A stretch of 64,000 bases of DNA. Origin: Candidatus Hadarchaeota archaeon. Lineage in GTDB: Archaea; CAYQAE01; CAYVLA01. Below, piece by piece: positions 49,174 through 55,227 of this stretch. Each line of letters begins with the position of its first letter. Within the stretch, counting starts at the first letter, position 1. The DNA is taken from contig CAZUNO010000002.1 of the NCBI GenBank assembly GCA_964621445.1, positions 1 through 64,000 on the forward strand. The letters run 5' to 3'. The translations under genes and the position numbers were made by a program. The notes beneath the pieces are model-generated. The model was not told where the DNA came from, made no database searches, and was given only the letters and a program-made list of their open reading frames with translations.

Positions 49174-50796
49174 ATGAGTAACGATAAAAAAACTAATTTT
49201 CTGTGGATATCATTTGAGGATACCAACCCCTTCTACGGTTGTTACGGTGACCACATCGCCCGCACTCCAAATCTTGATCGTCTTGCAGACGAGGGCTGCA
49301 TATGGACCAACGCATTCTCCACCGCGGGCGTTTGTGCACCCGCCCGCTCGGCCATAATAACCGGAATGTACCCCACCTCCATGGGCACTCATCACATGCG
49401 AACTACACATACCAACGAATTCGCTCCCGAATTACCCACCCCATACTCAGCCGTAGTTCCCCATTACGTAACCTGTTTCACCGAGTACCTGCGTGCAGCC
49501 GGTTACTACTGCACAAATAACGTTAAAACCGATTACCAGTTCGATCCCCCCTTAACGGCCTGGGATGAATTGAGCAAAAACGGACACTGGCGTAATCGTC
49601 CAGATACCGAGCAACCTTTTTTCTCGGTATTCAACCTGGGACGCACCCATGAAAGTGGCATGTGGCCAGAGAAATGCCCCGAAATAGCTTTTGACCCCGA
49701 TAAAATGGAATTGCCACCATATTTCCCGGACACGCCTAAGGTCCGCAGGGCCATGGCCCGAATGTATACCAACATCGAGCAGAACGACCGGGTTCTCGGG
49801 GATCTACTAGAACAACTTGAGGAAGACGGTCTGGCCGAGAATACGATAGTGTTTCACTGGAGCGATCACGGACCTCTGCCACGAGGCAAACGCTGGCCCT
49901 ATGATTCCGGTATCCGCATTCCAATGATAATCCGCTGGCCAGGTAGACTGGAACCCGGAAGCGTGAATGAGAATCTGGTTAGCACCATTGACCTCGGTCC
50001 CACTGTACTATCACTCGCCGAAATCGATATACCCTGGCATATGCAGGGGAAAGCATTTCTGGGATCACAAACCGGACCTAGCCGGGACTACATCTTTGCC
50101 AGCCGCGACCGGTATGACGAGTCCTATGACATGGTACGGGCCGTCCGGGACAAGCGCTTCAAGTACATCCGGAACTACTATCCTAACAAACCATACCTGC
50201 TCTGGATACCATACAGGAACAGGCATCCCATAGTACAGGAAATGTGGCGTTTGCACCTTGAGGACAAGCTAGAAGGAGCACAACGCCTGATGTTTCGGTC
50301 CCGGCCAGTAGAGGAACTCTATGATACACGACAGGATCCTCATGAAATTCATAATCTGGCGGATAACCCTGAATACCAACCGGAACTCAGGAGACTTCGT
50401 GAAGCCCTGGATGCTTGGATAAATGAGGTAGGGGACATGGGAGAAATCCCGGAAGAGGAGATGATACGCCGTTGGTACCCGACTGGGGAAAAACCACGCA
50501 CCGCGCCACCATTATTTATTCCTATCACTAAGGATAACCCAGGGAAGGACCCAGCCCCACGTGGGGGAGAATATCAAGGGCCTTTTCTCATTCAGATCTA
50601 TTGTGCCACGCAGGGGGCCTCTATCGCCTATACATTTGATCAGGATGATAACCCCCATTGGCTGCTCTATACAAAACCAATTCGATTACCAGAGGGCGAG
50701 AACAGGCTGAGAGCTAAAGCAATTCGAATTGGGTACACAGAAAGCACGGAAAGAGCGGCAACCTTTTCCGTATCTAACCACGGATTGCCAGCTTAA
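49174..50796 (+). CDS. Cys-type sulfatase (sulfamidase-like) with C-terminal FN3-associated/chitobiase-like domain
   Basis: CAPARS, SDHG, RDRYDE..RAVR, EELYD; C-terminal ATQGASIAYT..LY..PI..AKAIRIGY. Confidence 0.9.
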   Translation: MSNDKKTNFLWISFEDTNPFYGCYGDHIARTPNLDRLADEGCIWTNAFSTAGVCAPARSAIITGMYPTSMGTHHMRTTHTNEFAPELPTPYSAVVPHYVTCFTEYLRAAGYYCTNNVKTDYQFDPPLTAWDELSKNGHWRNRPDTEQPFFSVFNLGRTHESGMWPEKCPEIAFDPDKMELPPYFPDTPKVRRAMARMYTNIEQNDRVLGDLLEQLEEDGLAENTIVFHWSDHGPLPRGKRWPYDSGIRIPMIIRWPGRLEPGSVNENLVSTIDLGPTVLSLAEIDIPWHMQGKAFLGSQTGPSRDYIFASRDRYDESYDMVRAVRDKRFKYIRNYYPNKPYLLWIPYRNRHPIVQEMWRLHLEDKLEGAQRLMFRSRPVEELYDTRQDPHEIHNLADNPEYQPELRRLREALDAWINEVGDMGEIPEEEMIRRWYPTGEKPRTAPPLFIPITKDNPGKDPAPRGGEYQGPFLIQIYCATQGASIAYTFDQDDNPHWLLYTKPIRLPEGENRLRAKAIRIGYTESTERAATFSVSNHGLPA

Positions 50797-53216
50797 AGAT
50801 CCTCGATTATCAGGGGATGAGCTGGGTCAGTGATTAACCACTGGGGCAATCCCTTGTCAAGTGTAATGATCTCATAATTATCGGATTTATGCATCAGTAT
50901 CTTCCAGAACCCCGGTTTGGATTCCCCCCGCGAAATAAGGATATGGGAAGATGACCCATGAACCTTGGGATTTTCCAAGCACCCCATATGCTCCTCATCC
51001 GGGGAAAAGACATCGGCTTTAGCTCCACTCTTGCCAAGAATCAGGTTGAAGCTCTCCGTCCCTTCCGGTACGTGGAAATATAGGGGCAAATCTTCATCAA
51101 GGCACCTCCCATCCAGATCCAAGCCGTGAGGTGGAACATGGAAAGCCATCCAAGCACCGTTAACCCTCATTTTCTCCAAGGCTGCCATACGGTACGGAGC
51201 TCTAAGAAAATAGACCTTGTTTGCCTTTCCCTGGAAGGTAATTGACCTTCCTTCGGCCACCATCCCGGTGTCAATCGATTTGCCCTTTTCATCTGTCAAC
51301 ACGTATTGTATAAATTCGGCCCTTCTATGGAATCTCTCAATTTTGATCTTGACTGCTCCTTCGGACGAGCTGTATAGAAGCAAATCAATTCCACCCCTGC
51401 CCACTGGTACCAGGCAGTCCCTTGGACCTGTCTCACCCCCTATGGGCGGACTCTCCGTCACCGCCAACTCAGGGGGTTGAAAATCGATCTTTCTGGTTAT
51501 CCTACATCCCTCTCGCTGATTTGCAAGAAGCTCATCGATCTCATCCTCATCGAGGGTCAAAGGTGATTGGTAATCTGGCGGCAGGAAGCCGTAATCACGG
51601 AGGTTCCATTGGAGAAGTGACAAAACATGGCCAAAGATATCCAGCCTTTTTTGTTGACTTGCCTTCTTCTCCACGGATAAGGCATCGAGATAGCAGCTCT
51701 CGATCTCTGGATAGAGGGGGGCATATAACTCCTCCAAATGCCTCTCGGTGAGCAGGTATTTTGCACCTGAATTGCGGTTATAGAACCGAGAAAAGGCCCT
51801 ATCGAGGAGACCGAAGAGTCTCTCCACGGATTTCCCTGCTTCATAACCATAGGCCTTCAGGTAATATTCGTGGAGTATCTCCCTCGCATCCTGGTCCGGG
51901 TTCCATAGCAGTCTGGCAATGGTATAGTTACCGGGACCAGAAACGGGCCAGACTGGGTTACCGTAGATATATCCTCCCTTGAAGCCATATTTAGACATAT
52001 TTGAGAAGGTCGACTTCAGAAGCTCCGGTGACGGGGGGCATATTATCCCATTTGGTTGCACCAGGGTCGTCGGCAGATCATAGTAGTAGATATCGAAGCC
52101 GTGTTTTCTTGATAGTTCACTCCAATCTCCCCATATGGATTCGTCCCATCTTTGCTTGACCGAAGGACGATAGAGCCTGAAACCATAGGCAGGGCTATTG
52201 GGGATCACAAAGGCCAAGTTGGATTCAATATCCATTTCCTCGGAAGGCGGGTAACGATAATTCGCATACAGGTAACCCCCCAGCATGTGCTTCGGGAACT
52301 CCTTCTCCACAATCCGGGCCACATCGTTATAGAATTTCAAAACCAAAGGAGTAACCGAAATTTCACCATGGGGGTCAATTTCCTTAAGTGCCCCCGACTC
52401 CGGACTCTCGCTCCATGCCCCACCGTCGGCCGGTGATAGCGAGTACCACCGCCTTTTTGGATCCTCTCGAAATGCCTTGATGATTTTTTCGGCGAAATAT
52501 TGGACCATCTCCTGGTTCGTGGTCTCCAGCTTGTAGTATCGACCTATGGGCGGAACCCGATTTCCATCCCTCATGGCAAACCAGTCTGGGTGTTCATCGT
52601 AAAGAGAGGGAGGAACCGTCCTTATCCAACTATGATTATGCTCGATTGGGCAGACCTGGTGCAATTTCATGCGCTTATCCCATTCGTCCTCCAGAGGGGC
52701 TTTGTCTCTAAACGAAATAACGCGGTAATCAAAGGGTGGATGGTCTTCCCGGTCCATTTCGGGAATCACCAAATCTCCCATTTCCGTATATTCCTCCCCC
52801 ATCTCACCCGGCATTAGCCATCGGACTTCTAGATATTCCTCAATGAATGAATACACTCCATTGGAAGTACCATGATTCACTCCTCCCTTGTCGTTAAGCT
52901 CCCCATCTGGCGTGTCGGGACCTAGAATGAAGAGATTGGAATCGAGAGCTACAATTCTGTAGCCATCAATGGGAATCTCCGAAGGGTCCAGCCCCTCTTC
53001 CCTGGCTGCGGCAGTGTAACCCAAACTGATATACGGATTGGAAGGTGGCTGCTCGGTGGATATAACCTCGGGTAAAGCTCCAGTCACCTTTCCAAAATAA
53101 TTCCTTAGGTCCTTAGCCGCATTCCTTACGGATTCAGGAGCGGTTGGATCCAGGTAAATTGAATAATTGGTCTTTCTGTTCCGGACAATCGGGATTGATC
53201 CTCTTCCGGACTTCAA
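50793..53216 (-). CDS. DUF4838-domain protein (GH-like)
   Basis: AAKDLRNYF, GTSNGVYSFIE..VRWLMPG, HPDWFA, SLSPADG, ARLLWNP. Confidence 0.78.
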   Translation of the reverse strand: MKSGRGSIPIVRNRKTNYSIYLDPTAPESVRNAAKDLRNYFGKVTGALPEVISTEQPPSNPYISLGYTAAAREEGLDPSEIPIDGYRIVALDSNLFILGPDTPDGELNDKGGVNHGTSNGVYSFIEEYLEVRWLMPGEMGEEYTEMGDLVIPEMDREDHPPFDYRVISFRDKAPLEDEWDKRMKLHQVCPIEHNHSWIRTVPPSLYDEHPDWFAMRDGNRVPPIGRYYKLETTNQEMVQYFAEKIIKAFREDPKRRWYSLSPADGGAWSESPESGALKEIDPHGEISVTPLVLKFYNDVARIVEKEFPKHMLGGYLYANYRYPPSEEMDIESNLAFVIPNSPAYGFRLYRPSVKQRWDESIWGDWSELSRKHGFDIYYYDLPTTLVQPNGIICPPSPELLKSTFSNMSKYGFKGGYIYGNPVWPVSGPGNYTIARLLWNPDQDAREILHEYYLKAYGYEAGKSVERLFGLLDRAFSRFYNRNSGAKYLLTERHLEELYAPLYPEIESCYLDALSVEKKASQQKRLDIFGHVLSLLQWNLRDYGFLPPDYQSPLTLDEDEIDELLANQREGCRITRKIDFQPPELAVTESPPIGGETGPRDCLVPVGRGGIDLLLYSSSEGAVKIKIERFHRRAEFIQYVLTDEKGKSIDTGMVAEGRSITFQGKANKVYFLRAPYRMAALEKMRVNGAWMAFHVPPHGLDLDGRCLDEDLPLYFHVPEGTESFNLILGKSGAKADVFSPDEEHMGCLENPKVHGSSSHILISRGESKPGFWKILMHKSDNYEIITLDKGLPQWLITDPAHPLIIEDL

Positions 53217-53321
53217 GGTTCACACCTGCGTTAAATGCATGGGGCTGAAATACAAAGACTCCTATTTTCATACATTATACATCGATTAAAATCAAATGGA
53301 GAAAAATCCAGCGGGAATAAG

Positions 53322-53460
53322 CGCTGGGGAGGGGATTTGAACCCCTGAAGCCTTTCGGCAACTGACTAGCTGCTCCGATCTGGATTAGCAGGCATACGCT
53401 GCTAAGCATCAGCGCCCTTCCAGATTGCCCGTGGATTTCTCCACACTAGGCGACCCCAGC
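53322..53460 (-). tRNA. tRNA-Ser(GCT) with three introns (53425-53445, 53394-53409, 53368-53385); CCA not encoded
   Basis: Acceptor stem GCTGGGG/CCCCAGC, G73 discriminator, T arm AGGGG-TTCAAAT-CCCCT, long variable arm GCC-GAAA-GGC; removing three BHB/BHL-bounded segments gives an 84-nt cloverleaf with anticodon loop CT-GCT-AA. Confidence 0.92.
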
Positions 53461-53485
53461 TCCAAGAGTGTGGACTTACACGGGG

Positions 53486-53500
53486 AAATAAATCTTTTCG
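53486..53500 (-). promoter_or_regulatory. BRE-TATA promoter of tRNA-Ser
   Basis: CGAAAAGATTTATTT, with the TATA element 26-32 nt upstream of the mature 5' end. Confidence 0.6.
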
Positions 53501-53532
53501 ACAGAAGCGGCTCTCAATTTATCTGCGGCGAA

Positions 53533-55227
53533 TTAAACTGAATCCCCTACAAGAGATGTTGACAAATCTGAGGTTCCCTGTTTATCGTAGGGTAGAACCA
53601 GCATGAATTTCGTCCCCTTTCTAGTTTTTCTCCGGACATCGATGGTTCCGCCATGACCTTCCGCAATTTTCCTGCAAACGCACAGTCCGAACCCCTGCCC
53701 CTGTGCCTTCGTTGTAAACATGGGTTCGAAAATTCTATCCATATCCTCTTCGGGAATCCCTTCACCGGTATCACTAACGCTCATCTTAACGTTTCTGCCG
53801 TCAAAGGACGTGGATATGACGAGTTCTCCCCCATTGGGCATGGCCTGAAATGCGTTGGTTATGAGGTTAATGAGAACCCTTCTTATGAGATGAGGGTCCA
53901 CCTCGAATCCCTCCGGAGTGGGATCAATATCGGTTTGCACCGTCACATTATCAGGAACATCTACGGAATCGAGGACCTTCATAATGAAATCATGAACATC
54001 CACCGACTGAAGCTCAGGTCTTATGGGCCTAGCATAATCCTGAAGGTCGGAGACTATCTTGTTCATGTAACCGGCCCGCTTTTCAATCGTATCCAGCCGA
54101 TCCTTAACCTCCCTTAACGATCCCTTATCAAGTTCATTCTTAGCAAGATATAGGTTATTCACTATAACCTGCAGTGGATTCCGGAGGTCATGGCCAACCA
54201 TGGCCGTGGTCTCGCCGATAGCAGCCATTCGCTCCCTTTCCTTCAACTGCTTGGTCCTCTCCTCCACGAGCTGCTCCAAATGCTGCGAGTACTTCCTCAC
54301 CTTCTCTTCGGCCTCTTTCCTATCCGTTATATCCATTATTACTCCACGAAGCCCACTAAAATTTCCCTCATTCCATATGGGAATTGCACGCAATAAGACG
54401 GGGAAGGTGGAGCCATCTTTTCTTATTGCCGTAAACTCCCCTGGACCGATTTCTTGTTCCTCCACTAGTTTTCCTAATTCATTCTTCGCCTTCCCCCGAT
54501 CCTTCGGGGCCAACATATTAAACCCGTTTAGTCCGCGTTTAAGGTCTTCCTCACTGTAACCGAACATATTAAGAGCATTTTGATTCGTATAGGTCAAGTT
54601 TAGCTCCTCATCCGTTTCAAATATCGCCCCGGGCATCATATCGGCGACATTCCTGAAACGCTTCTCGCTTACCCTGCGACCCCACGAGGCCTCCTCCAAA
54701 CTTCTTGCAGAAAGCCACGCAACGGTCGCCAAAATAAAAAAACCAATCATGGCCATCACATTGGGGAATCTTTGACCAGCGGGTCCTAACCCCACAATGG
54801 TAATCGTTATGCTACATATGATGGCGAAAACAAAACTTGCCCATCGCCTCAATATGAAACTTGACAGTACTATAGGGATGGAGAAGAAGAAAACATTACG
54901 CCCGTCTGCAACTTCAACCGGGGAGTCGGAGAGAACGATGGCAATAATAAAGAGAAATAGTAATGCGAATGCCGCCGCTTCAACTGACCAATACCGGTAG
55001 AAGGCATATGTAAGCCCAATCGCCACGGTAATGATCCCAATCCCGATAAAAAGACTGCGTGTCTCCTTAGGCGAACCTACTTCCCCAAAGGATACCGCAA
55101 ATAACGTTATGATAAGGCCGACAATTAGGGCCATTGCCAGCGCTTCTAAAAAAAGCCGGACCAATCCCCTTCGCCGCTCACCTGGCATTTCGGATGAGAG
55201 ATTGCCTTGATTACTCAATCCATTCAC
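53533..55227 (-). CDS. membrane PAS-domain sensor histidine kinase
   Basis: About 6 TM helices, PAS/PAC, GHDLRNPL H-box, NLITNA, DTGEG, FTTK, GQGFGL; start may be 55188. Confidence 0.93.
   Translation of the reverse strand: MNGLSNQGNLSSEMPGERRRGLVRLFLEALAMALIVGLIITLFAVSFGEVGSPKETRSLFIGIGIITVAIGLTYAFYRYWSVEAAAFALLFLFIIAIVLSDSPVEVADGRNVFFFSIPIVLSSFILRRWASFVFAIICSITITIVGLGPAGQRFPNVMAMIGFFILATVAWLSARSLEEASWGRRVSEKRFRNVADMMPGAIFETDEELNLTYTNQNALNMFGYSEEDLKRGLNGFNMLAPKDRGKAKNELGKLVEEQEIGPGEFTAIRKDGSTFPVLLRAIPIWNEGNFSGLRGVIMDITDRKEAEEKVRKYSQHLEQLVEERTKQLKERERMAAIGETTAMVGHDLRNPLQVIVNNLYLAKNELDKGSLREVKDRLDTIEKRAGYMNKIVSDLQDYARPIRPELQSVDVHDFIMKVLDSVDVPDNVTVQTDIDPTPEGFEVDPHLIRRVLINLITNAFQAMPNGGELVISTSFDGRNVKMSVSDTGEGIPEEDMDRIFEPMFTTKAQGQGFGLCVCRKIAEGHGGTIDVRRKTRKGTKFMLVLPYDKQGTSDLSTSLVGDSV

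Follow-up and report, generated by a model that had tools for sequence, protein, structure and literature searches.

A putative three-intron tRNA-Ser(GCU) gene in an uncultured archaeon outside the Thermoproteales

The 64,000-nucleotide stretch of a Candidatus Hadarchaeota genome analysed here (the window) carries on its minus strand a pre-tRNA-Ser(GCU) coding region of 139 nt (53322..53460), which runs from the mature 5′ end G1 (53460) to the discriminator G73 (53322) and does not encode the 3′-terminal CCA. The gene sits in a 316-nt gap between two minus-strand ORFs; one (50793-53216) encodes 807 aa with a DUF4838 domain and the other (53533-55227) a 564-aa PAS/HisKA/HATPase sensor histidine kinase, and neither has an apparent link to the tRNA. 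Four exons alternate with three introns, all on the minus strand. Exon 1 (53446..53460, 15 nt) holds the 5′ strand of the acceptor stem, positions 8-9, the 5′ strand of the D-stem, A14 and G15, and is followed by intron 1 (53425..53445, 21 nt) in the D-loop at 15/16. Exon 2 (53410..53424, 15 nt) supplies the remaining D-loop with G18 and G19, the 3′ strand of the D-stem, position 26 and positions 27-29, up to intron 2 (53394..53409, 16 nt) at 29/30. The short exon 3 (53386..53393, 8 nt) comprises positions 30-37, including U33 and the anticodon GCU, and is separated by intron 3 (53368..53385, 18 nt) at the canonical 37/38 site from exon 4 (53322..53367, 46 nt), which contains positions 38-43, the variable region, the T-arm, the 3′ strand of the acceptor stem and G73.

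When the gene was sliced by script at these coordinates, which are those of the original prediction, the exons (15 + 15 + 8 + 46) gave 84 nt and the introns measured 21, 16 and 18 nt. ARAGORN, which is silent on the unspliced gene, identifies the product as a tRNA-Ser(gct) of 84 nt that has G73 and a long variable arm, and in its free minimum free energy (MFE) fold this product forms a cloverleaf plus an extra arm. Both results agree with the original prediction, which had stated that the locus folds as a tRNA only after three segments are removed and that the mature form is an 84-nt type II tRNA with G73. The class II features of the product are a 15-nt variable region with a 3-bp stem, the anticodon GCU and G73. 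A G73 discriminator and a long variable arm are serine identity elements; by its variable arm, anticodon and discriminator, the predicted product is a class II tRNA-Ser. A split or permuted tRNA gene is ruled out, as the four exons are colinear within 139 nt. Read from the DNA, the locus is a multi-intron archaeal tRNA gene with introns of the bulge-helix-bulge (BHB), protein-spliced type, whose splicing is predicted.

Two of the introns are bounded by strict motifs and one by a relaxed motif. Intron 3 has a strict BHB with the helix CUGC/GCAG, the bulges UA^A and CU^A and an inner stem UCC/GGA, and the anticodon stem provides its outer helix. The strict hBHBh′ motif of intron 2 consists of the helix GCGC/GCGU, the bulges UG^A and AU^G, an inner stem UGC/GCA and an outer helix in which the 3′ side of the D-arm (nucleotides 21-23) pairs with positions 31-33. 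The outer helices of introns 2 and 3 are 3 and 2 bp long, respectively, and the inner helix is 3 bp in each. At intron 1, the helix GCCU/GGGC is accompanied by a 3-nt bulge AG^U and a 5-bp hairpin, GUGGA-GAAA-UCCAC, as the inner helix, and the second cut site, AA^U, stands without an outer helix, giving the relaxed HBh′ form. Every motif that had been named for the strict BHBs at 37/38 and 29/30 was found, as were the helix, bulge and hairpin of the relaxed motif proposed at 15/16.

The helix, bulge and hairpin of intron 1 form unaided in the free MFE fold of the precursor, with a pair probability of 0.86 for the helix. In the consensus fold of four orthologues, intron 2 has its helix with a long outer helix, and intron 3 its inner stem. 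The MFE folds of the precursor and of partly spliced forms of the gene in G000 (the genome to which the window belongs) lack the 4-bp helices of both these introns, the mean pair probabilities of which are at most 0.17. However, this failure is weak evidence against the two introns, because most other introns of the genome fail too: among other predicted introns in the best tRNA genes of G000, the MFE fold has all four helix pairs in 5/15, and in only one of the five at the canonical 37/38 site. Nucleotides 31-33 are required by the motif of intron 2 and also by that of intron 3, so that only one of the two can form at a time, which makes stepwise splicing probable; the account of closely spaced introns given with tRNAscan-SE 2.0, in the part drawn on here, agrees with stepwise splicing (PMC8450103). 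In the MFE fold of the same precursor, a D-loop segment, AUCUGGA, pairs over 7 bp with UCCAGAU at the start of intron 3 (window positions 53419-53425 and 53378-53384 on the minus strand; precursor nucleotides 36-42 and 77-83), and this complementarity is mostly kept in relatives through a U-A to U-G change.

The phylum is represented by five species genomes in the collection searched, of which G000 and G001-G003 form one family and G004 a sister family. Genomes of the first family are large for archaea (2.4-4.0 Mb), and G000 DNA occurs in microbial-mat and hypersaline-lake metagenome runs; none of the runs listed is recorded as RNA. BLAST finds the gene once in each of the three relatives in the family, 88-89% identical along its full length and carrying the three insertions too, whereas the flanks cannot be aligned. 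Across the four family genomes, variable alignment columns number 4/85 in the exons (all in loops), 23/58 in the introns and 57/61 in the flanks (Fisher's test for exons versus introns, p = 2.9e-7; the sequences are kin, so that independence is overstated). Exons 1 and 3 are invariant in all four family orthologues, exon 2 varies only at D-loop position 20/20a, and the two variable columns of exon 4 both lie in the variable region. Where the intron strand of a helix has changed, pairing persists: G-U becomes G-C in intron 2, and U-A becomes U-G in intron 3. A closer relative on the X3/X4 metagenome contigs, from a second study, has the same architecture and only three differences within the gene, all in introns 2 and 3, compared with four indels and 32 substitutions in the flanks, 17 of the latter at 53182-53282 and 15 at 53463-53582. 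An intron-less allele was not seen, with no joints in the DNA contigs of X1-X4. Searches of the genome for paralogues of the three introns with their context (blastn-short), which would be a sign that introns had transposed, gave only chance matches of 13-18 nt.

Several features point to expression and to a need for the gene. A promoter-like element on the minus strand (53486..53499), a purine-rich GAAAAGA followed by TTTATTT, ends 25 nt before the mature 5′ end; we take it to be an archaeal BRE/TATA box. The motif lies 24-27 nt from the gene in all four family orthologues, in which the rest of the flank does not align, and is unchanged in the X3/X4 relative even though adjacent flank positions differ. 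Several further tRNA genes of G000 have a similar motif about 30 nt upstream. On the other side, a run of five T on the minus strand (53302..53306), 16 nt after the gene, is a weak candidate for a transcription stop and is not conserved in the downstream flanks of the other orthologues. A CCA-adding enzyme gene is encoded in G000. The codons AGC and AGU make up 29% of the serine codons in 839 long ORFs, and the serine tRNAs found elsewhere in the genome by ARAGORN in intron mode have the anticodons UGA, GGA and CGA, with no other GCU. Neither ARAGORN, nor a home-made genome-wide scan, nor the Rfam tRNA matches gave any other credible tRNA-Ser(GCU) in G000. Two further 'GCT' solutions of the scan were rejected, as their scores of 24 and 25 and their 'introns' of 40-128 nt place them inside the noise; the window locus scores 30.

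The original prediction had also warned that standard tRNA scanners may mis-call the gene, and both ARAGORN and Rfam miss its unspliced form. ARAGORN finds 0 genes in the 64-kb window and leaves the unspliced gene uncalled even in intron mode. Rfam gives 0 matches over the 64 kb at the gathering threshold, and a loose scan (E<=10) returns chance-level matches only, the best from the tRNA clan being tRNA-Sec at 14.8 bits against a 47-bit threshold. Across the whole genome, the locus is likewise absent from the 38 Rfam tRNA matches. The sole tRNA found for AGC/AGU codons is therefore one that neither ARAGORN nor the Rfam tRNA model sees, and automatic annotation of this lineage will consequently report a missing tRNA.

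The sister-family genome has no BLAST match to the gene. Its tRNA-Ser(GCU) was located by our home-made scan of Rfam tRNA loci (G004:C2:5155-5254, minus strand, locus L147; score 31). This gene of 100 nt has a single 16-nt strict BHB intron at 29/30, with uninterrupted D- and anticodon loops, and its mature form of 84 nt is identical to the predicted window product at 63/84 positions in a gap-free alignment. Compensatory double changes account for differences in 6/21 stem pairs; exon 3 is identical, and the fourth pair of the intron 2 helix is C-G in the window gene and G-C in G004. The two genes thus share the mature length of 84 nt, the 29/30 position, the intron length of 16 nt and the anticodon loop, and differ in that the G004 gene has one intron, not three, introns 1 and 3 being absent. 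As a predicted orthologue, the G004 gene is the nearest thing to an intron-less allele, and around 15/16 and 37/38 it settles what the mature sequence is. The pattern suggests a greater age for the 29/30 intron, with introns 1 and 3 either gained in the family of the window or lost in G004. In intron mode, ARAGORN mis-calls the G004 gene as an intron-containing tRNA-Pyl(cta), with a CUA anticodon, which is a likely source of false pyrrolysine tRNA annotations.

A tRNA-like fold could in principle arise by chance through the free choice of three removed segments, and we gauged this by enumeration with home-made BHB and cloverleaf scripts. Intron candidates were segments of 11-120 nt whose ends fit a 3-4-3 bulge-helix-bulge, with a 4-bp helix and at least one flanking helix of 2 bp. 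A 159-nt region around the gene contains 56 such BHB-like candidates, including all three proposed introns; introns 2 and 3 are among the seven strict ones. Up to three BHB-like removals were enumerated and ARAGORN was run on each product. On the true gene it gives some call for 56/607 combinations, a leniency that follows from the presence of a genuine acceptor stem and T-arm and that speaks for chance; the same removals in 200 dinucleotide shuffles and 199 random 159-nt genomic windows yielded no tRNA call (0/200 and 0/199). Because ARAGORN is too permissive to choose a model, as its many genome-wide mis-calls also show, we used a stricter cloverleaf filter instead. This filter fixed the arm lengths, demanded U33 and a purine at 37, allowed a class II variable arm solely where the anticodon is Ser or Leu, tolerated at most one mismatched pair in the acceptor (7 bp), anticodon (5 bp) and T (5 bp) stems, and required the D-stem pairs 10-25, 11-24 and 12-23 to be intact. 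A single combination (1/191) passes, and it is the three-intron solution originally proposed. The conservation pattern and the outgroup orthologue also fit a real gene, and with the controls effectively refuting it, chance resemblance has a negligible probability. Only slightly less improbable is a decaying or silent pseudogene that has accumulated insertions while a working tRNA-Ser(GCU) lies elsewhere in unassembled DNA. The assembly consists of 89 contigs and is 96% complete, and the scanners reject the locus, both of which would suit such a pseudogene. However, the exons are almost invariant across three genera in which the flanks are scrambled, all three insertions keep their splice motifs through one-sided or compensatory changes, the promoter-like motif is conserved, each family relative has only its single match, and G000 has no other credible gene for this tRNA. 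Decay is therefore a very improbable explanation.

The least certain point is the exact register of the D-loop intron. Intron 1 starts N-GUGG and exon 2 starts UCUGG, and with these two copies of ...UGG both a 15/16 and an approximately 20/21 register give a valid cloverleaf. The second would leave the same three-intron gene with intron 1 cut elsewhere: exon 1 would end after GUGG, the intron would end in UCUGG, and the mature D-loop would read NGUGG, not UCUGG. In G000, the two products differ at one base (C17 for 15/16, G17 for ~20/21), and their identities to the G004 product (63 versus 62 of 84) barely separate them. In G001 and G002, the ~20/21 register has all four helix pairs, two of them G-U, together with an outer helix of 4 bp; in G002, where the 15/16 helix has 3/4 pairs, it is the sole solution that passes the 4/4 filter. 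In G000 and G003, by contrast, it has 3/4 helix pairs and no flanking helix, whereas the 15/16 register gives a 4/4 helix with the 5-bp hairpin in three genomes. Its 5′ cut would also fall inside the conserved 5-bp MFE hairpin, the stem of which is kept while the loop changes in sequence and length, and the uninterrupted D-loop of G004 reads CCUGG, one change from UCUGG. We consider the ~20/21 register unlikely and prefer 15/16 as the predicted site. Weighing all of this sequence-based evidence, we think it highly probable that the locus is the functional, probably sole, tRNA-Ser(GCU) gene of this uncultured archaeon, with three introns at 15/16, 29/30 and 37/38 that are removed by splicing.

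The gene belongs to an intron-rich set of tRNA genes: 24/36 Rfam tRNA loci above the cut-off in G000 span at least 87 nt. Our genome-wide scan, with loose acceptor matching, returned 77 loci, the majority of which score 18-25 and are noise, one stop anticodon included; its output is noisy below a score of about 26, and we regard as credible those loci that score about 26 or more with short introns. In this incomplete, home-made scan, introns of other G000 tRNA genes fall at 21/22, 29/30, 30/31 and 43/44, in the D-loop and in the variable region; two other genes have two introns, and only tRNA-Ser(GCU) has three. Examples on the minus strand are Arg(UCU), with a 16-nt intron at 29/30 (G000 C7:8-97); those on the plus strand are Leu(UAG), with introns at 30/31 and 37/38 (C25:41388-41505), Tyr(GUA), at 37/38 and 43/44 (C9:87406-87524), Ser(UGA), at 30/31 (C6:118610-118712), and Glu(CUC), at 21/22 (C5:137172-137258). 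The tRNA inventory is incomplete, and expected tRNAs such as Asn, Cys, His and Gln were resolved by none of the tools used.

The original prediction had called for the type of splicing endonuclease (EndA) in the genome to be identified, and G000 encodes two: an epsilon-type enzyme and a fused two-unit type with a CSL-like loop. The first lies on contig 9 (28563-29768, plus strand; locus L032:835-2043) and is about 402 aa long from its likely start. Residues 125-507 align to residues 13-387 of the epsilon2 enzyme of ARMAN-2 (PDB 4fz2; E = 4.6e-74), with equivalents of Y236, H251, K282, R275, W384, K228 and the loop residues Y160-K161 all kept. In the ARMAN-2 enzyme, Tyr, His and Lys are catalytic, Arg and Trp clamp the bulged base, and the Tyr-Lys pair lies in the ARMAN-specific loop (PMC12397907). 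The contig 9 enzyme is of the epsilon2 (ARMAN-2) type, a single three-unit chain whose dimerization and activity are predicted. The second gene, some 30 kb away from the tRNA gene and also on contig 2 (~82,900-84,000, minus strand; locus L031:1468-2589), encodes 373 aa in two units: the C-terminal unit matches the Aeropyrum pernix catalytic subunit (E = 3.9e-43) and the N-terminal unit weakly matches beta subunits. Its loop has a Lys aligned to K44, which sits in the loop of the A. pernix enzyme in the passages cited here (PMC6379350, PMC3241643). According to the relevant parts of three papers, loops of both types were shown to enable endonucleases to cut introns of the relaxed and D-loop kinds (PMC3241643, PMC6379350, PMC12397907), and D-loop introns are cut by loop-bearing enzymes and hardly at all by the loop-less Archaeoglobus fulgidus enzyme, as one of these reports in the portion used (PMC3241643). 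G000 also encodes RtcB (609 bits). The genome therefore has candidate endonucleases for relaxed motifs and an RtcB-type ligase, with their activity predicted.

Both EndA types are present in all four family genomes. In contrast, two protein queries found in G004 only a 190-aa endonuclease that lacks the loop insertion. Of 56 distant archaeal genomes sampled, four have full-length epsilon-type matches, and none of these four is larger than about 1 Mb. Published accounts, as far as those consulted go, give one endonuclease type per organism, and a literature search at the level of titles found no epsilon-type enzymes outside the ultrasmall ARMAN archaea, which is not proof of absence.

From the observed gene anatomy, conservation and enzyme genes we infer how the gene may be transcribed, where it is cut, by which enzyme and in what order. 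Transcription from the BRE/TATA-like promoter would give a precursor with introns in the D-loop, the anticodon stem and the anticodon loop. A splicing endonuclease would then cut each intron at the two 3-nt bulges that flank its 4-bp helix. Introns 2 and 3 would offer it a strict BHB, and intron 1 only the relaxed HBh′ form, for which a broad-specificity enzyme would be needed; the candidates are the ARMAN-2-like epsilon-type enzyme with its specificity loop and the fused two-unit enzyme with its Crenarchaea-type loop. RtcB would join the four exons, the ends would be trimmed and CCA would be added, yielding the 84-nt class II tRNA.

A larger enzyme set, epsilon-type plus Korarchaeum-like two-unit, may have accompanied the change from one strict intron, as still seen in the sister family, to three, including a relaxed D-loop intron, with the overlapping motifs of introns 2 and 3 forcing a fixed order of splicing; we put this forward tentatively, as a possibility that we rate below even chances. 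If it is true, the family of the window and its sister family would show, as a natural pair, the states before and after in the co-evolution of endonuclease architecture with tRNA introns. The two lineages, one with a single intron and the other with three and a different endonuclease set, allow a clean comparison that bears on the view that the spread of introns follows the presence of a broad-specificity endonuclease.

That an archaeal tRNA gene may carry two or three protein-spliced introns is well documented in the accounts cited here, mainly for Thermoproteales, as the original prediction had stated (PMC4033280, PMC3239211, PMC8450103, PMC4090602), and three introns is the published maximum per tRNA gene in the parts of these accounts that give one (PMC4033280, PMC3239211, PMC8450103). 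D-loop introns and the 29/30 position are likewise already known in archaeal tRNA genes from the literature consulted. The original prediction had proposed that three introns with one at 15/16 are rare; the reviews consulted give other positions and, without a finer site, the D-loop. The three-intron genes of Thermoproteales resemble the window gene in combining one canonical with two non-canonical short introns, colinear and with BHB or relaxed motifs. Pyrobaculum islandicum tRNA-Pro(UGG), for example, is interrupted by introns at 25/26, 37/38 and 56/57 (Sugahara 2007, quoted in the section of PMC4090602 used here), and the window gene differs from it in its 15/16 and 29/30 positions and in a host outside Thermoproteales. 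The endonucleases differ as well: an epsilon-type and a fused two-unit enzyme in G000, compared with a heterotetramer of separate alpha and beta subunits in Thermoproteales.

The closest parallel to the epsilon-type enzyme is in ARMAN-2 (Ca. Micrarchaeum acidiphilum), which, in the passages available to us, likewise has a three-unit epsilon-type enzyme with conserved catalytic and loop residues (PMC3239211, PMC3488258, PMC12397907). ARMAN-2 also resembles G000 in having many tRNA genes that carry non-canonical introns, some relaxed, according to the same partial accounts. The examples they give have one or two introns (59/60; 53/54 and 59/60), whereas the window gene has three, and the ARMAN-2 genome is about 1 Mb, compared with 3.2 Mb for G000, which has a second endonuclease gene. 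Like the window gene, A. pernix pre-tRNA-Thr2(UGU) has a D-loop intron, which in A. pernix is removed by an enzyme that needs its specificity loop with a key lysine, in the part of the study drawn on here (PMC3241643); a comparable loop and lysine are present in the two-unit enzyme of G000. However, the A. pernix D-loop intron is a canonical BHB whose splicing was shown experimentally, as described in the same portion of that study (PMC3241643), whereas the D-loop intron of the window is of the relaxed HBh′ form and predicted. The second EndA of G000 resembles the fused two-unit enzyme of Korarchaeum cryptofilum, the catalytic unit of which groups with crenarchaeal alpha subunits in the passage cited (PMC3239211); this likeness consists of PDB matches only. 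Heavy disruption of tRNA genes, including the published maximum of three introns, is thus not confined to Thermoproteales and occurs also in a phylum for which the collection searched has five species genomes. The window gene joins a known multi-intron kind, and what sets it apart is a new lineage that has an unusual enzyme set.
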